Positions 2,188 through 37,034 of a stretch of DNA of 40,933 bases are shown here, piece by piece. The notes beneath the pieces were generated by a model. It saw only the letters and a list, made by a program, of their open reading frames with translations. It was not told the DNA's origin and searched no databases. Origin of the DNA: a virus. The stretch's first letter is position 1; every line of letters begins with the position of its first letter. The stretch is from the UHGV virus genome UHGV-0179541; one strand, given 5' to 3'. The translations under genes were made by a program, and so were the position numbers.

Positions 2188-4077
2188 ATGAAATCCGAAA
2201 CGCTAACCATCCAGCAAATTTTCCAAAATCAACGACAATATCGTGTTCCATTCTATCAACGTGCCTACGTATGGACGCAACGAAACCAATGGTCAGCTTT
2301 GTTGGAGGATATCTTCGAAAAAGCACAGAGCCGACTTTCGGGAACAAAACCAACCCCTCATTTCCTCGGCGCGGTGGTGCTGGAACCTCAACTCAAAAAC
2401 AGCTTGTTAGGTGTAGATACCATACATATTATTGACGGCCAGCAACGTTTAACCACTCTTCAATATATTCTGGCATCCATTCGATTATCATTGCGTGCTA
2501 CAGGCCTTTCTGAACTGGAAGGGTTAGTATTGACTTGCTTGAAAAATACAAACGAAGCAACGATGAGAAATAAAAAGGTAGAATGCTTCAAACTGTGGCC
2601 AACTTTTCGAGATCAAACTCATTTTATTCAAAGTCTTAATGTTGATAATATTGACGATCTCCGTAATGTATTTTCTGATAGCTTCACGCAACATGGTACG
2701 TTACGTAAACATTTCAACCACCCGCCGTCACTAGAGGCATTATGGTTTTTTACTGAAGCCTTTATAAAATGGATTAAAATAGAAAAACACTCACCACAAG
2801 AAAATGCTGTAGCACTAATTGAGGCTGTCTTGACGGATCTGAAACTGGTAAGCATATTTCTCGAAGCTGAAGATGATGCCCAAATAATTTTTGAAACATT
2901 AAATGGGCGAGGAGCGGAACTTCATGCAACGGATCTTATTCGCAACTATATCTTTATGTGCGCTGAGCATGAAAATATTAATGCTATTGAATTATATGAA
3001 AATGAGTGGAAGATCTTTGAAGATAAATACTGGTCGGAAAAGCAACGCCGTGGACGTATTAATAAACCACGCATGGAGTGGCTTGTACATGCGACATTGC
3101 AATCAGAAAGGCAGCGTGAAATTGATCTGTCTCGCCTTTACAATGAGTATCGTGATTATGTAAGTAAGGACTTGCCTTCACAACGAGCAGATCTGCAAGT
3201 AAAGCGCCTCAAACAATATGCATCACAATATAAAGAATTGGTTGGTGGTTTTGGCACAACCCCCATCTCACACTTTAGACATCGCATCGCAGCCTATGAT
3301 GTGACGACACTCTATCCGCTTGCTTTGTTCATTTCGATAGCTAACATCGCCGATGATGAGAAAGCAGCCATGTATAATGATCTTGTCTCCTACGTAGTAC
3401 GAAGATCCGTATGTGGCCTGACGCCAAAGAATTACAACAATGTATTTATGAATGTATTGCGACACTTGTCTAAAACGGAAATTTCCAGTGTTGAGTTACG
3501 TAATATCCTCAATAGCTTAAATGGCGAAGCCTCACGTTGGCCTGGGGACTCAGAATTTCTCAACGCTTGCATCAATGCTCCACTTTATCCTGGCAGGCTC
3601 GACGCACCGAAAATGCGCTCAATGTTAACGGAACTTGAAAGAGAACTTTGTCGCCAAGTGAAGACAGAAAAGCCTGATGTTCCAAATCTTTCTAATCTCG
3701 ATATCGATCATCTTATGCCTCAAAGTTGGTATTCCTGTTGGCCTCTCGAAAATGGTCATATGGTGACAAATTCAGATGCTACGGTAATGAACCAAATTGT
3801 TCTGTCTGGAACCGATCTTACCCCTGAACAGCTACTGGTAAGGAAACGGCAACAAGCGATAGCTACGTTGGGAAATCTAACTTTGCTTAACCTTAGCGTA
3901 AACCGTTCCGTTCAGAATGCTGTATTTCTGAAAAAACGTGATGCTCTCATCGTCCATACCAATCTACGACTGAACATACCACTTATACTTAAGGATAAAT
4001 GGGATGAGAGTGAAATACTGGAGCGAGGTAAAAAGTTGGGGGAAATTGCATTGAAAGTATGGCCAAAATACGATTAA
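2188..4077 (+). CDS. DUF262/DUF1524 two-domain protein, GmrSD-family type IV (modification-dependent) restriction endonuclease-like
   Basis: N-terminal motifs VPFYQRAYVW and IIDGQQRLTTL (DUF262 / ParB-like signature DGQQR); C-terminal DIDHLMPQS region consistent with the DUF1524 His-Me finger; AT-richer than phage core. Confidence 0.75.
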   Translation: MKSETLTIQQIFQNQRQYRVPFYQRAYVWTQRNQWSALLEDIFEKAQSRLSGTKPTPHFLGAVVLEPQLKNSLLGVDTIHIIDGQQRLTTLQYILASIRLSLRATGLSELEGLVLTCLKNTNEATMRNKKVECFKLWPTFRDQTHFIQSLNVDNIDDLRNVFSDSFTQHGTLRKHFNHPPSLEALWFFTEAFIKWIKIEKHSPQENAVALIEAVLTDLKLVSIFLEAEDDAQIIFETLNGRGAELHATDLIRNYIFMCAEHENINAIELYENEWKIFEDKYWSEKQRRGRINKPRMEWLVHATLQSERQREIDLSRLYNEYRDYVSKDLPSQRADLQVKRLKQYASQYKELVGGFGTTPISHFRHRIAAYDVTTLYPLALFISIANIADDEKAAMYNDLVSYVVRRSVCGLTPKNYNNVFMNVLRHLSKTEISSVELRNILNSLNGEASRWPGDSEFLNACINAPLYPGRLDAPKMRSMLTELERELCRQVKTEKPDVPNLSNLDIDHLMPQSWYSCWPLENGHMVTNSDATVMNQIVLSGTDLTPEQLLVRKRQQAIATLGNLTLLNLSVNRSVQNAVFLKKRDALIVHTNLRLNIPLILKDKWDESEILERGKKLGEIALKVWPKYD

Positions 4078-32712: not shown

Positions 32713-33051
32713 CTATTTCCCTGAATTTACGACGAAACTGTTCGAGCGGGCTGAAGCACTCATGCTCATAGCCTTCACGGAGGTAGATAACCCGTTGTGT
32801 TTCCGGCTCCCAACGAATGACTCTGACGGGCACTCCGTAGTGATCTTTGAACCAGCGGTTAACTTGTCGCAAAGGACTGTCTCCTTCTGCCGGTTGAAAT
32901 CACCCACAGCCCACTCTGCAAAGCTGTGGGTTACAATTTCCCTGTCACCTGGTACATTCACTGCATAGCAATATTCCACCTTCGCTTTTCCACCCGGTAC
33001 AGGAAGCGCAATCAGTTGCGAGCGACGGTAGTGTGTTGTTAAACTGTTCAT
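32713..33051 (-). CDS. Hypothetical ORF between cII-like and replication genes (may be non-coding)
   Basis: Track ORF only; contains a 9-bp inverted repeat ACCCACAGC-N12-GCTGTGGGT at about 32902..32931. Confidence 0.25.
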
Positions 33052-33617
33052 GCGTTAGTTTCTCCACAACCAGAAGCAATCGACGCCACGACGCCCGGAG
33101 CTGCACACTCGCGGGCGTCATTACTTTCTGAAATGCAAAAAATTTTGTAGACAAGTGCTGCATGCTCCTGCAGCTTCGAAATTGAGAGATACAGCTCGTC
33201 GTTAATTGCTGTCTTCTCATGCGGTTCCACTACACCATCTTCGATTGCTGAACGAATCTGTTTTGAATAACTGCCGATCTGTTCAATGACTTCCAGCAGA
33301 CGCTGGTTAATATCGGCGTTGTCCACATCCTCGACGTCAGGAAGAGACACAAAGACGCCATTTGCAGACTGCGCCACAGCATCAGCAATGAAGTGAGTGC
33401 CACCAGCACGCTGTAAAACCATTGCCCATCCCAGCGGGAAAATCTGATCGCCATCTGCACGAAGGCGGTTGAATAAAGCGTTTTCTGTTACATCGAGCCA
33501 GTCAGCCGCTTCAGCGTAACCACCCGGCAACGCCGCGATAGTTTTTCTGACAGCTTTCACGTACCACTCAGGCTGTTTTTCTATTTTCCAGTGATGCTTA
33601 CCCACGATTAGCCTCAT
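33048..33617 (-). CDS. CII-like regulatory protein (CP76-family-like)
   Basis: 189 aa immediately downstream of cro; recall-based family assignment. Confidence 0.4.
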
Positions 33618-33648
33618 CGTTCTGTGGTTAAAAATTGAAAGTGTTCTG

Positions 33649-33849
33649 CTAATCTTTCGGATAGATATCCGGTCTTAAGTCAGATTTCGTAATTGCACCT
33701 GACGTGCATTGCTCAAGTTTTTTAGCCAGCACAAAACTGGCTTTTTTATAGCCATTGAAAACCAGCCGTAAGTAGCCAGGTGTTGAGCCAACTTTTCCGG
33801 CCAACTCGCCCTGCTGTTCTTTGGTTAAAGAGTCCCAATACGCTTTCAT
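33649..33849 (-). CDS. cro: Cro-like HTH repressor
   Basis: 66-aa frame MKAYWDSLTKEQQGELAGKVGSTPGYLRLVFNGYKK..., divergent from cI; AGGT ribosome-binding site. Confidence 0.6.
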   Translation of the reverse strand: MKAYWDSLTKEQQGELAGKVGSTPGYLRLVFNGYKKASFVLAKKLEQCTSGAITKSDLRPDIYPKD

Positions 33850-33852
33850 ACA

Positions 33853-33924
33853 ATATGTACCTCCGGTGTACATATTACATGATTGAAATGAACCTTCAAG
33901 ATACTTGTACCTTAACGGTACAAG
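33853..33924. promoter_or_regulatory. Immunity operators: ATATGTAC-N7-GTACATAT (33853..33875) and CTTGTACC-TTAAC-GGTACAAG (33904..33924) in the cro/cI intergenic region
   Basis: Two palindromes sharing a TGTAC core, read directly. Confidence 0.6.
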
Positions 33925-33939
33925 GGTTTTAATTTCGTT

Positions 33940-34614
33940 ATGAAAACAATCCATGACATCCGGCGGTCTAACGCCAGAAAACTGAGAGATGGTGTTGGCG
34001 GGAATTCTTCCTTTGCCACTATGATTGATCGCGAGCCAACCCAGACCAGCAGGTTTATGGGAGATGGTGCTACTAAAAATATCGGTGACAGCATGGCACG
34101 ACACATCGAAAAATGTTTCGACCTGCCTGTCGGATGGCTCGATCAAGAACACCAGACAACGAACATCACAAAAAAACCTGATGTTTCAATCACTAATAAA
34201 CAAATCACATTAGTCCCTGTCATATCATGGGTACAGGCCGGAGCATGGAAAGAAGTTGGATATTCTGAGGTTGATTTGAGCACAGCAGAAACGTATCCCT
34301 GCCCTGTCCCCTGTGGGGAAATGACTTATATCTTGCGGGTGATAGGTGATTCAATGATTGATGAGTACCGCCCGGGAGACATGATTTTTGTCGATCCTGA
34401 AGTACCTGCCTGCCACGGTGACGACGTTATTGCATTGATGCACGATACAGGTGAAACCACCTTCAAAAGGTTGATAGAAGATGGGACACAGCGTTATCTC
34501 AAAGCGTTAAACCCAAACTGGCCTGAGCCTTACATTAAGATCAACGGTAATTGCTCTATAATTGGTACAGTGATTTTCTCAGGAAAACCAAGAAGATACA
34601 AAATCAAAGCCTAA
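33940..34614 (+). CDS. cI: CI-type repressor (HTH plus S24 LexA-like peptidase domain)
   Basis: 224 aa; C-terminal S24-like region (GDSM, IGTVIFSGK); divergent from cro. Confidence 0.75.
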   Translation: MKTIHDIRRSNARKLRDGVGGNSSFATMIDREPTQTSRFMGDGATKNIGDSMARHIEKCFDLPVGWLDQEHQTTNITKKPDVSITNKQITLVPVISWVQAGAWKEVGYSEVDLSTAETYPCPVPCGEMTYILRVIGDSMIDEYRPGDMIFVDPEVPACHGDDVIALMHDTGETTFKRLIEDGTQRYLKALNPNWPEPYIKINGNCSIIGTVIFSGKPRRYKIKA

Positions 34615-34626
34615 TCAATGTTTATG

Positions 34627-34650
34627 AACCTGCTTCGGCAGGTTTTTTTA
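34627..34650 (+). terminator. Rho-independent terminator after cI
   Basis: AACCTGC-TTCG-GCAGGTT followed by a T run. Confidence 0.75.
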
Positions 34651-34653
34651 TAC

Positions 34654-34681
34654 TTGACAGTGTACCTTTGAGATACATAAT
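34654..34681 (+). promoter_or_regulatory. Near-consensus sigma70 promoter TTGACA-16-CATAAT with TGTACC operator-like half-sites (pL-like)
   Basis: Hexamers read directly; GTGTACC and ATGTACC flank the -10 element. Confidence 0.55.
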
Positions 34682-34788
34682 GTACCCAAGAGAAACAACA
34701 AACAGGCAGGACGCCCACGAAGTAGCCCGCCCGGTACGTACGAAGACCGGGATGATTCGTTAGCGGATGATTTCAGTGGAGAGAATAG

Positions 34789-35097
34789 ATGAATGAGCAG
34801 GATTTGAAGCATGTGATCGCATTGTTGCTGGAAGACGCTAAACGTTTGCAGCAGATAGAGCCAAATGCAGGCACTGAGGCCCGTATTTTGTTAGCAAAAC
34901 AGGCATTAAAGACTTGCGGGGCGCAAGACCCTGATCGAACCAAGTTCATGAATTTCATGGCTAACACGATCACCCCCCTGCCATGCAATGGAGAGAGGGT
35001 GAGCCGTGTTTATCACGACACAATGGTTAAGGCATTAAGAATCGAGCTTGATGGGCTTAGGCGTAAGATCGTGATGAACAAAATCGTTGCCAACTAA
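34789..35097 (+). CDS. Hypothetical early-left protein
   Basis: 102 aa, GGAG ribosome-binding site, first gene after the pL-like promoter. Confidence 0.5.
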   Translation: MNEQDLKHVIALLLEDAKRLQQIEPNAGTEARILLAKQALKTCGAQDPDRTKFMNFMANTITPLPCNGERVSRVYHDTMVKALRIELDGLRRKIVMNKIVAN

Positions 35098-35412
35098 GGA
35101 AGCAGACGGAAGTAAGCATGCGCTTTGTTCAAATTTGCAGACAAATATATTTGCGTCAACACCAGCACTGTTAGCAATGGAAAAAGTTTGATCAAGGATT
35201 TGTTGGCAGTTCATTGTGCTTTTGAGGATATATCCCTCTGGAATCAGTCTGCAGCAGCTATCGTCAGACTCTTTGATTGTTTTCTGGTACAGAAAGTTAA
35301 GCATTAATTCTTCAAATTTTTTGGTCTGTTCGGCTGTTGCTTCAAACAGACGAACGTGAACATAAAACTGGTTCATTAGGTTTCCTTGCTGGCTGTGTGA
35401 GAACTCCAGCAT
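35035..35412 (-). CDS. Hypothetical AT-rich ORF, start uncertain
   Basis: Track ORF in an AT-rich stretch between the immunity region and xis; no recognisable motif. Confidence 0.3.
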   Translation of the reverse strand: MLEFSHSQQGNLMNQFYVHVRLFEATAEQTKKFEELMLNFLYQKTIKESDDSCCRLIPEGYILKSTMNCQQILDQTFSIANSAGVDANIFVCKFEQSACLLPSASLVGNDFVHHDLTPKPIKLDS

Positions 35413-35680
35413 ACCACCGAGCCTGAAGTGGTGAAAAGACAGGCAATAGTTTCATTGCTGTGTGTAGTCTTGGCGGTACCAGCTTGTACACTTGCTTCCG
35501 GCTGGTACCGTCCTTTTTACAAAACAGAGAAGAGCATCACCGGACGACGGGCTCATAACCCAATCCATCCGGGCGGCAGTCACCGCAGGTGTTCTTCTCT
35601 GTTTTGTGGAGAAACTAACCGACCTTGCAGGGTCGATATGCTGAGACTAAGCAGTTAGTGAAGTAATAAGGTGATCGCAT

Positions 35681-35926
35681 ATGCTTCAAATGTTAACTCT
35701 TGAAGAATGGGCTACTGAAAAATACAGAAGCAATCCTCCAAGCGTGTCCACATTGCGTCGTTATGCTAAGCAGAATTTATTTTGCCCACCGGCCATGAAA
35801 CAAGGTCGGTTATGGCGAGTGCGTGAGGACGCCGAATTAGTTGGGGAGTTGGTAACGCCAATAATTAAGAAAAATGACTCATTACTTTTGCAACGGATTT
35901 TGAGTGATGGCAGCCAGACCGCGTAA
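35681..35926 (+). CDS. xis: Excisionase-like protein
   Basis: 81 aa overlapping the integrase start, the usual xis position. Confidence 0.55.
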   Translation: MLQMLTLEEWATEKYRSNPPSVSTLRRYAKQNLFCPPAMKQGRLWRVREDAELVGELVTPIIKKNDSLLLQRILSDGSQTA

Positions 35927-37034
35927 GAATAATGTTTCAGTCCCTAACTTATATCCGCTTTATAGTAGGAAGGTAAATAAAGTCTATTGGCGGTATAAGC
36001 ATCCAGTAACAGGAAAATTCCATGCTTTGGGAACAAACGAAGCTGAAGCTATCGCTATTGCCACTGAGGCCAACACTCGCCTGGCTGAACAAAGAACCCG
36101 GCAGATTCTGGCTATCAGTGACAGGATCGCAACCAGCAAAGGAAAGGCTATCACAACGTCAACCTGGTTAGATCGCTATCAAGCGATCCAGGATGACAGG
36201 CTTAAAAGTGGTGATATAAGACTCAACACCTATAAGCAAAAAGCTAAACCAGTATCCTTGCTCAGAGAACGAGCAGGAATGAAGTTGATCTCAGCCGTTG
36301 ATGTAAGAGATATAGCACAATTGCTTGACGAGTATATCGCTGCCGGGCAGCCGAGAATGGCGCAAGTCGTAAGGTCTGTATTGATCGATGTATTTAAGGA
36401 AGCACAGCATTATGGCGAAGTTCCGCCAGGGTATAACCCTGCTCTTGCGACGAAGCAACCCAGACGGAAAATTACCCGTCAACGCCTCAGCCTGGAAGAA
36501 TGGCAAAAAATATTCGATATCGCAGACGCCACTCATCGTTATATGGGAAATGCCATGCTCCTAGCTTTGGTCACTGGGCAGCGTTTGGGAGATATATCCA
36601 AAATGAAATTTAGTGATATTTGGGAGGATCATCTTCACGTCATTCAGGAAAAGACTGGAAGCAAAATCGCTATCCCTCTTTCTCTACGTTTGAATGCTAT
36701 CAATTGGAGCCTACGAGATGTAGTAGCTCGCTGCCGTGACTACGCAGTGAGCCCATACTTGGTGCATTTTTTCCGTTCAACCTCACAAGCAGAACGTGGT
36801 GCACAGGTTAAATCCAATACATTGACGATGAATTTTAGTAAAGCAAGGGATTTAGCAGGGATTGACTGGGGGGATGGCTCACCTGCCACATTCCATGAAC
36901 AAAGGTCTTTATCTGAACGCCTGTACAAAGAACAGGGGTTAGATACGCAAAAATTACTTGGTCATAAAACACAACAGCAGACCGATCGTTACCATGATGA
37001 TCGAGGCAAAGGATGGAGCAAAGTAGCATTGTGA
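35904..37034 (+). CDS. int: Tyrosine integrase (phage integrase family, icd-specific e14 / phage-21 type)
   Basis: 376 aa; C-terminal catalytic region ending HKTQQQTDRYHDDRG; prophage sits in icd. Confidence 0.85.
   Translation: MMAARPRKNNVSVPNLYPLYSRKVNKVYWRYKHPVTGKFHALGTNEAEAIAIATEANTRLAEQRTRQILAISDRIATSKGKAITTSTWLDRYQAIQDDRLKSGDIRLNTYKQKAKPVSLLRERAGMKLISAVDVRDIAQLLDEYIAAGQPRMAQVVRSVLIDVFKEAQHYGEVPPGYNPALATKQPRRKITRQRLSLEEWQKIFDIADATHRYMGNAMLLALVTGQRLGDISKMKFSDIWEDHLHVIQEKTGSKIAIPLSLRLNAINWSLRDVVARCRDYAVSPYLVHFFRSTSQAERGAQVKSNTLTMNFSKARDLAGIDWGDGSPATFHEQRSLSERLYKEQGLDTQKLLGHKTQQQTDRYHDDRGKGWSKVAL

Follow-up and report, generated by a model that had tools for sequence, protein, structure and literature searches.

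In the immunity region of phage lambda, cI and cro are divergent, and the 17-bp operators that lie between the two genes are repeated and have two-fold symmetry. A further set of operators is located at pL, the promoter next beyond cI. The lambda repressor responds to SOS, carries an S24 self-cleavage domain and is made from a leaderless cI mRNA. Shigella phage SfV and the K-12 prophage e14 (cI/cohE and cro/croE) carry the same immunity module as the DNA described here, at 95-99% DNA identity. In the SfV record (U82619.2), both of the OR sites reported below fall within an annotated 'putative operator region', and neither the SfV nor the e14 record defines the motif or the OL site. Further along, in the early-left operon, the small RNAs sRNA-17, STnc100, PasD and DicF are found with the immunity region on one side and yfdP or xis on the other, and the ends of the 193-nt sRNA-17 of E. 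coli K1 RS218 have been mapped by RACE (Sun et al. 2020).

The window, that is the whole stretch of 40,933 nucleotides that was analysed (UHGV virus genome UHGV-0179541), is an e14/SfV-type lambdoid E. coli prophage inserted in icd. Unlike K-12 e14, which is defective, it is a full-length prophage with Kiwa cargo. Its immunity module is present at 1437 places in 1324 E. coli genomes, about a quarter of the complete genomes (1324/5426). The operator set is of the standard lambdoid OR/OL design, sharing with lambda all of the features given above, and differs from it in having two OR sites 50 bp apart rather than three adjacent ones, a single strong OL site that has no more than one weak neighbour, TGTAC as the half-site, and no N gene. 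The repressor, YmfK/CohE, is 100% identical to K-12 YmfK; it joins a LexA-like self-cleavage domain of the S24 type to an N-domain that is a divergent helix-turn-helix, and a Pfam search of the N-domain found no helix-turn-helix. Pfam matches of the Cro-like YmfT are weak and sub-threshold (YdaS_toxin 25.1 bits, cut-off 30; HTH_3 16.9 bits, cut-off 23). As a whole, the region (Table 1) is very probably explained by OR/OL operators for CI together with a separate hairpin that is what remains of an sRNA terminator.

Table 1. Features of the immunity region and the early-left operon, in window coordinates (a point stands in the strand column for the operator sites).
Feature	Position	Strand	Evidence
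cro-like gene (ymfT), 66 aa	33649..33849	-	ORF listing; annotated cro in SfV, ymfT in E. coli
OR cro-proximal site (site 1), TGTAC-CTCCGGT-GTACA, TGTACCTCCGGTGTACA, perfect	33856-33872	.	motif search
OR cI-proximal site (site 2), TGTAC-CTTAACG-GTACA, TGTACCTTAACGGTACA, perfect	33906-33922	.	motif search
cI-type repressor (ymfK/cohE), 224 aa, C-terminal S24 self-cleavage domain	33940..34614	+	Pfam Peptidase_S24, 1.5e-26
Intrinsic terminator after cI	34626..34652	+	terminator scan; annotated terminator in SfV and Ayreon
Early-left promoter (pL equivalent), TTGACA-16-CATAAT, 11/12 matches	34654..34681	+	promoter scan; annotated promoter in phage Ayreon
OL1 operator, TGTAC-CTTTGAG-ATACA, 9/10	34661..34677	.	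motif search
Possible weak second OL site (uncertain), TGTAC-CCAAGAG-AAACA, 8/10	34681..34697	.	motif search at up to 2 mismatches
Conserved structured leader RNA of the pL transcript	34698..34760	+	13 phages, 7 genera
ymfJ, first pL-operon gene	34789..35097	+	ORF listing
ymfI, convergent with ymfJ, 63-nt overlap	35035..35376	-	ORF listing
Conserved single-stranded segment ATTGCTGTGTGTAGTCTTG, 5' of the hairpin	35454..35472	+	kept in relatives with a different stem
Predicted intrinsic-terminator hairpin (the inverted repeat of the earlier note)	35472..35518	+	fold, relatives, sRNA mapping in a relative
Long conserved hairpin, 25-nt arms, early-left leader	35519..35607	+	compensatory changes in ST64B and LLS
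xis	35681..35926	+	Pfam Exc, 7.6e-12
int (intE-like)	35904..37034	+	ORF listing

The sites between the divergent cI and cro genes are repeated and two-fold symmetric, and overlap the cro ribosome-binding site and the inferred promoters. Both are perfect copies of TGTAC-N7-GTACA with the same geometry, which extends the earlier note's remark that the two cro/cI operators share a TGTAC core. The perfect arms of OR site 1 reach AATATGTAC/GTACATATT (33852-33876), its spacer holds, on the - strand, the GGAGG that serves as Shine-Dalgarno sequence of cro, and its right half-site is ATACA in SfV and Ayreon. OR site 2 has the arms CTTGTACC/GGTACAAG (33904-33924) and overlaps the inferred -35 of the cI promoter (TTGTAC, 33905-33910) and the spacer behind it, the -10 being TTTAAT (33928-33933). 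The promoter hexamers at OR are read from the sequence, both OR promoters falling below the threshold of the promoter scan. The K-12 OR is identical to that of the window over 106 nt, and the ymfK mRNA is leaderless in K-12 (PMC4681348).

CI most likely binds 17-bp operators of the form TGTAC-N7-(G/A)TACA as a dimer, and the same sites are probably bound by YmfT; the searchable literature yielded no binding, footprint, reporter or published binding-site data for YmfK/CohE, and the operators are accordingly assigned by comparison. A paper on cross-talk between prophage repressors deals with Rac, not with e14. As the cro-proximal operator would cover the -10/+1 of the inferred cro promoter as well as the cro ribosome-binding site, repressor bound there is predicted to shut off the early-right operon. 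The cI-proximal site, centred at about -26, overlies both the -35 and the spacer of the promoter of the leaderless cI mRNA, and CI should thus repress its own gene; activation like that at lambda OR2 is not expected.

The motif recurs at the early-left promoter beyond cI, where OL1 fills the spacer between TTGACA (34654-34659) and CATAAT (34676-34681) and takes in the first 2 nt of the -10. OL1 is conserved in K-12 e14, SfV and Ayreon, and its ATACA half-site is that of OR site 1 in SfV and Ayreon. TGTACC half-sites had been noticed earlier as flanking the -10 of this promoter, and both copies are there, at 34661 and 34681. The second of these begins a candidate site centred 20 bp from OL1, whose left half-site is TGTAT in Ayreon; given this alteration and a match at noise level (13 observed against 12.2 expected at 2 mismatches), the candidate was set aside as uncertain. 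Heteroimmune relatives offer a parallel, each having its own OR motif again at the promoter that follows the repressor gene (ATGTAGGATAnCCAACAT in L005, TTGC..CGCAA in L004 and ST64B). Together with the 9/10 match inside the post-cI promoter, this argues for the earlier proposal that the CI regulon includes the early-left operon. CI on OL1 would exclude RNA polymerase from pL, and cleavage of CI after DNA damage would release the early-left and early-right operons together; in K-12, ymfJ (pL) and ymfM (pR) share late SOS induction kinetics. For the e14/SfV/Stx2c-phage immunity group, in which YmfK/CohE controls the SOS-inducible division inhibitor YmfM, this would define the operator explicitly as TGTAC-N7-(G/A)TACA and map its OR and OL positions.

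With up to 1 mismatch to TGTAC-N7-GTACA, 3 matches were counted in the 40.9-kb window against 0.70 expected, all of them within 822 bp in the immunity region. With up to 2 mismatches, the 13 matches found in place of 12.2 expected show that this level is noise, and even so there is no match within 35400-35700. GTAC itself is dense in this part of the window (7.6 per kb in 33600-35700, 2.8 per kb window-wide), and 6 of its 16 copies in 33600-35700 belong to OR/OL sites.

The motif was also compared across repressors, and computed in this way it co-varies with the DNA-binding domain. The N-domain of CI is 48-59% identical to those of the Pseudomonas phages CF60a and LESphi3 and of a Vibrio phage, the value varying with the comparison made; the helix region IDREPTQ-SR is retained in both Pseudomonas phages and differs at two residues in the Vibrio phage. 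In the Pseudomonas phages, two perfect TGTAC-N7-GTACA sites are separated by 51 bp, and the spacer of site 1 contains CCTCC; the Vibrio phage has one perfect and one degenerate site. Where the DNA-binding domain is unrelated, the motif is absent. Related CI DNA-binding domains thus go with the same motif and the same two-site layout, which supports TGTAC-N7-(G/A)TACA as the operator of this CI family. A search of the 3.2-kb loci of the Pseudomonas and Vibrio relatives for an OL-type site found none.

The inverted repeat upstream of xis, with TTGTACA in its 17-nt spacer, had been described as a perfect 9-bp repeat; it is in fact perfect over 10 bp, CGGTACCAGC at 35474-35483 and GCTGGTACCG at 35501-35510. 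About 18 separate perfect 9-bp inverted repeats are contained in the window, so that such a repeat is not special in itself. On the transcribed strand it forms a G+C-rich stem-loop directly before a U-tract, with an RNA stem of 12 bp (GGCGGUACCAGC/GCUGGUACCGUC, one G-U pair), a loop of 17 nt and a U5 tract at 35514-35518. The predicted fold has 13 pairs ahead of the U5, with a whole-segment energy of -26.3 kcal/mol (z = -3.6). Structure rather than sequence is kept among relatives: variants stay paired only as + strand RNA, through G-U pairs, the second DicF-like locus L009 has compensatory stem changes (CATCAG/CTGATG instead of TACCAG/CTGGTA), and Salmonella ST64B and phage LLS have unrelated stems at the same position, the T-run being constant throughout. 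The repeat is accordingly read as an intrinsic terminator hairpin and not as an operator. The terminator scan, which admits loops of 3-8 nt, did not list it. A loop of 17 nt is large for an intrinsic terminator.

The earlier note had instead taken the repeat for a CI site, and in that form GGTACCAGC-N17-GCTGGTACC, or the GGTAC-N6-GTACA within it, which is the closest operator-like reading, would be a third site through which CI directly controls xis and int. The repeat has three GTAC cores in a GTAC-enriched region and lies upstream of xis, and in K-12 intE and xisE are co-regulated with CI-controlled genes. Against this reading, the spacing of the repeat is N6, or N25 between GTAC cores 25 nt apart, against an N7 that is invariant from E. 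coli to Vibrio. K-12 e14, with an identical CI, has a different hairpin loop that lacks TTGTACA, whereas in the L005 phage, whose repressor has no detectable DNA-binding-domain similarity and whose operators are unrelated, the hairpin is almost identical, TTGTACA included. The numbers of loci differ as well: the hairpin element was counted 3611 times, across 2777 E. coli genomes, and the immunity module 1437 times. Computed in these ways, the hairpin is independent of the repressor. ST64B and LLS carry other hairpins instead, and RACE and primer data from a relative, taken up below, put the 3' end of an sRNA at the repeat. A third CI site is therefore extremely improbable, and the GTAC common to the operators and to 35474-35510 is coincidental.

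The repeat could also be recognized as DNA by another protein, be it a second regulator, a recombination protein or a host factor, without an RNA hairpin being involved. The palindromic pair is perfect over 10 bp and is conserved at thousands of loci, which would suit such a site, and a Reg-Seq study reports a site for YhaJ close to where the ymfH-xisE-intE unit of K-12 is predicted to start. Against this, variants stay paired through G-U pairs on the + strand only, which in a DNA palindrome read on the other strand would turn into A-C mismatches; the stem has compensatory changes in L009 and is completely replaced in ST64B and LLS, with the T-run always retained; and the mapped sRNA 3' end falls at the repeat. 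A protein-binding site is thus very unlikely, and the terminator hairpin is the reading followed here. The case cautions against over-reading such repeats, as a GTAC palindrome near xis appears to be a leftover prophage sRNA terminator rather than a regulatory DNA site.

At its 3' end, sRNA-17 has a hairpin and U-tract nearly identical to those of the window, and its full-length primer set ends ...GTACACTTGCTTCCGGCTGGTACCGCTCTTTT, which places the 3' end at this hairpin (Sun et al. 2020). The terminal hairpins of the STnc100 and DicF models align with the hairpin as well. In relatives, an sRNA of ~190-200 nt (sRNA-17, which is STnc100-like and at its 3' end DicF-like), encoded where the early-left operon begins, would end in this hairpin. 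By this comparison the hairpin of the window is the 3' remnant of an STnc100/sRNA-17/DicF-like sRNA gene, from which ~165 bp of the sRNA body have been deleted, leaving the leader module fused directly to xis-int. In contrast to the described sRNAs, no Rfam family was found in the whole window at gathering thresholds. STnc100 (RF02076, cut-off 47 bits) has no match in the window and reaches 43.4, 39.5 and 29.2 bits in relatives, all sub-threshold, its model ending at this hairpin. For DicF (RF00039, cut-off 48 bits), the window scores 19.1 bits and K-12 e14 28.5 bits, with a range of 19-28 bits for the hairpin across the window and relatives, and the true DicF in G001 reaches 72.5 bits. The sRNA module is also carried by phages with quite different repressors.

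DicF itself is excised from a longer operon transcript, and by analogy the remnant at 35454-35518 might still work as a short DicF-like sRNA, released by processing of the pL transcript, with the segment AUUGCUGUGUGUAGUCUUG as its seed and the hairpin as both terminator and Hfq site. Such a function would fit the conservation of the segment 5' of the hairpin where the stem differs: it is kept, with a substitution or two, in ST64B and related Salmonella phages, and also in LLS and, with one substitution, in L009. The DicF match, too, is full-length if weak. That score is nevertheless far under the cut-off, and the sRNA body and start are deleted in the window, making a working short sRNA rather improbable here. 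Deletion of sRNA-17 raised yfdP by 2^6.6 and yfdR by 2^4.1 (Sun et al. 2020). Read-through from the inserted resistance cassette could account in part for the rise in yfdP.

With the hairpin taken as a remnant terminator, xis and int are still probably within the CI regulon. As xis-int follow the leader module directly, their expression is most likely by read-through from pL, and CI control would be indirect. The earlier claim that the regulon reaches the recombination genes thus probably holds by way of pL transcription, and fails as to a third operator. Expression data for K-12 e14 group intE and xisE with ymfJ and ymfT-M.

The mechanism proposed so far is standard lambdoid biology, and any wider interest lies in the unexplained leader RNA behind pL. 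This leader has a closing helix, a small hairpin, an invariant 22-nt core and a covarying hairpin, and compensatory changes are seen at 9 of 13 predicted pairs (13 phages of 7 genera). It carries two GTACs that are not conserved, and a model built from the 13 leaders finds a single copy in the window. Its position (~10 nt past the inferred pL start), its size (about 60-70 nt), and its location upstream of terminators in phages with no N gene seen resemble those of the put RNA of HK022, a factor-independent antiterminator that lies directly behind pL. It differs from put in having a closed three-way architecture and not two open stems, and in being present once per genome, with none in the right operon. 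Homology to put was considered and rejected, there being no sequence or model similarity to putL/putR and no match to the 13-leader model in HK022. It is tentatively suggested, as a doubtful reading, that the ~63-nt leader could be a new cis-acting, protein-independent antiterminator, put-like but unrelated. An antiterminating leader would carry RNA polymerase through the terminator at 35472-35518 and the structured leader beyond it into xis-int; in relatives, the genes downstream of it would be yfdP and onward.

The window carries a lambdoid prophage of the e14/SfV type, integrated in icd, whose repressor and the YmfK protein of E. coli K-12 e14 are 100% identical. The arrangement is lambda-like, with cI between the divergent cro promoter and, past the cI terminator, an early-left promoter (pL) directed towards xis and int. 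As ymfJ and ymfI converge and overlap (63 nt, 35035-35097), pL transcription is antisense to ymfI.

Immunity and recombination region of the prophage (window positions)
Feature	Position	Strand
cII-like ymfL	33048-33617	-
cro-like ymfT	33649-33849	-
OR site 1 (cro-proximal operator)	33856-33872	
OR site 2 (cI-proximal operator)	33906-33922	
cI-like ymfK/cohE, S24 self-cleavage domain	33940-34614	+
terminator after cI	34626-34652	+
promoter TTGACA-16-CATAAT (pL)	34654-34681	+
ymfJ	34789-35097	+
ymfI, convergent with ymfJ	35035-35376	-
xis	35681-35926	+
int	35904-37034	+

The two cro/cI palindromes with a common TGTAC core described in the earlier note are present, and TGTAC-N7-GTACA is exact in both. 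Allowing one mismatch, this motif has three matches in 40.9 kb (0.70 expected), the third being TGTACCTTTGAGATACA at 34661-34677 (OL1), exactly within the spacer of the post-cI promoter. The pair of TGTACC half-sites reported at this promoter corresponds to the left halves of OL1 and of a weaker site at 34681-34697; the first stands, but the second has two mismatches and is at noise level (13 matches, 12.2 expected). In SfV and Ayreon, phages with the same immunity module as the window, OR site 1 has the right half-site ATACA, the same variant as in the window pL site. Three lines of evidence from sequence comparison argue that the cro/cI palindromes and the pL site are real repressor operators, and they would form an ordinary OR/OL set. 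This set is worth recording because the motif is without annotation; the SfV record is limited to a "putative operator region", and a literature search found no published direct binding data for YmfK/CohE.

With residues 1-93 of CI as the query, tblastn matched Pseudomonas phages CF60a and LESphi3 and one Vibrio phage (55-59% identity); over the aligned first 97 residues, these CIs are 48-49% identical to the window CI. The IDREPTQ-SR stretch is retained in CF60a and LESphi3, and two of its residues differ in the Vibrio phage. CF60a and LESphi3 each carry a perfect pair of TGTAC-N7-GTACA sites, 51 bp apart; as in the window, CCTCC (the cro Shine-Dalgarno complement) lies in the spacer of the first. 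In the Vibrio phage, one site is perfect and the other degenerate. The remaining cI-cro intergenic DNA of these phages is unrelated to that of the window. The operator loci are L016:1416-1483, L018:1416-1483 and L017:1467-1483 (P. aeruginosa CF60a, LESphi3; Vibrio anguillarum phage). Thus, with the e14-type CI DNA-binding domain and TGTAC-N7-GTACA found together in the P. aeruginosa and V. anguillarum phages, one e14-type repressor-operator specificity appears to span three bacterial genera. Heteroimmune relatives repeat their own OR motif at the promoter that follows the terminator of the repressor gene (ATGTAGGATAnCCAACAT in the L005 prophage, TTGC..CGCAA in L004 and ST64B), which points to a general architecture. 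The HK022 pL region (L027:4330-4385, - strand) has the GTAC-containing repeats ATGTACTATTGGTACTTTACAT and AAGTACATCA, and GTAC cores may be common in operators among lambdoid immunity types.

The K-12 OR is identical to that of the window across 106 nt, and dRNA-seq shows the K-12 e14 ymfK mRNA to be leaderless (PMC4681348), placing the cI transcript start at about 33940. Given this start, the cI-proximal operator, centred near -26, covers the -35 and the spacer, a position that may be read as autorepression. ymfJ (pL) and ymfM (pR operon) show late SOS induction with near-identical kinetics (PMC11002266). The leaderless mRNA and the SOS kinetics both fit the operator reading. CI dimers at both OR sites and OL1 would close both early promoters, and SOS-triggered CI self-cleavage would open them together. 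The pL transcript would then run through a structured leader, ymfJ, ymfI antisense, a terminator hairpin and the 35519-35607 hairpin into xis-int. As xis and int are in the same K-12 expression module as ymfJ and ymfT-M, the proposed CI regulon probably does include the recombination genes, but through pL transcription and not via a third operator.

A conserved structured RNA lies directly after the pL start (34698-34760, +). Across 13 phages from seven genera (Escherichia, Shigella, Salmonella, Yersinia, Klebsiella, Pantoea and Pectobacterium), its 22-nt core, AGGCAGGACGCCCACGAAGTAG(C)C, does not vary, and its closing helix and hairpin covary, with compensatory changes in 9 of 13 predicted pairs. 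It is single-copy and has no Rfam family; its covariance model did not match HK022 put. The leader RNA is a candidate for a role in antitermination or processing; a put-like role may be hypothesised, since it sits ahead of terminators in phages in which no N gene was seen. C4 antisense RNA and IsrK matches above Rfam cut-offs were found in the early-right region of SfV (L001:410-598) and the L005 prophage (1632-1820, -). As the Rfam search of the window gave no match at all, it seems to be without this antirepressor-control module.

The inverted repeat upstream of xis, previously taken for a CI-related site, is present and perfect over 10 bp (35474-35483 and 35501-35510), but as a CI site it failed every test. 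No operator-like match with up to two mismatches occurs in 35400-35700. The closest reading of the repeat as an operator, GGTAC-N6-GTACA, was rejected because the operators keep an N7 spacing in phages from E. coli through to Vibrio. The repeat forms the 5' border of a ~175-bp element (35470-35645). Among complete E. coli genomes, this element occurs at 3611 places in 2777, and the immunity module at 1437 places in 1324. K-12 e14 has an identical CI, yet its hairpin loop differs and is without TTGTACA. In L005, with an unrelated repressor DNA-binding domain and different operators, the hairpin, including TTGTACA, is almost identical to that of the window. DicF has GGCGGTATCAG in place of the window hairpin's GGCGGTACCAG. 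The GTAC content of the repeat is coincidental.

The third "site" is instead most likely a terminator, and its variation obeys RNA rules. The variants CAGC/CAGT and CCGTC/CCGCC/CCGCT keep pairing via G-U pairs on the + strand only, and at a second DicF-like locus (L009) CATCAG/CTGATG replaces TACCAG/CTGGTA, giving two compensatory pairs. Salmonella ST64B and phage LLS have wholly different stems at the same position, and CTTTTT follows the stem in every case compared. In relatives, this hairpin is where the Rfam STnc100 model ends (scores of 43.4, 39.5 and 29.2 bits, against a cut-off of 47), and the hairpin itself gives a weak full-length match to the DicF model (19-28 bits, cut-off 48). In an mEp460-like prophage, the 193-nt sRNA-17 has RACE-mapped ends and was confirmed by Northern blot (Sun et al. 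2020, PMC7719688); its full-length primers run from GTTGTGGTGAATGCG... to ...GTACACTTGCTTCCGGCTGGTACCGCTCTTTT, placing its 3' end at this hairpin. Deletion of sRNA-17 raised downstream transcripts (yfdP 2^6.6, yfdR 2^4.1; PMC7719688), as would be expected of terminator removal, with the caveat of read-through from the inserted cassette. Relative to K-12 e14, SfV and others, ~165 bp of the sRNA body is absent from the window, where only the last ~65 nt remain. The element usually precedes yfdP and is joined directly to xis in the e14 lineage, hence the hairpin's apparent place "upstream of xis".

The missing ~165 bp (about 35441-35453 in the window; counterpart L003:4861-5082 in K-12 e14) encodes the STnc100-like sRNA body. 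The K-12 annotation makes it the protein gene ymfH, and other genomes list it as a frameshifted hypothetical protein, a pattern suggesting that an RNA gene has been misannotated. Immediately 5' of the hairpin, ATTGCTGTGTGTAGTCTTG (35454-35472, +) is conserved in relatives with a replaced terminator stem (ST64B, 1-2 substitutions; LLS; L009, one substitution) and resembles an sRNA seed or a segment bound by Hfq. In Qin, which carries true DicF (L007:1440-1500), and in L009 (1545-1600), GGTGAATGCGGCTAAGCGCACG, with which an STnc100-like body begins at its 5' end, comes immediately after the terminator; DicF-like hairpins thus seem to alternate with STnc100-like bodies as tandem modules. Adjoining the terminator on its 3' side is a long hairpin with 25-nt arms (35519-35607, +); its conservation extends over E. 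coli, Salmonella ST64B and phage LLS, and some of the changes among them are compensatory. The RNA 35456-35660 as a whole has a fold z of -7.6, and the long hairpin may be an RNase III/processing site or a structural element in the early-left operon leader.
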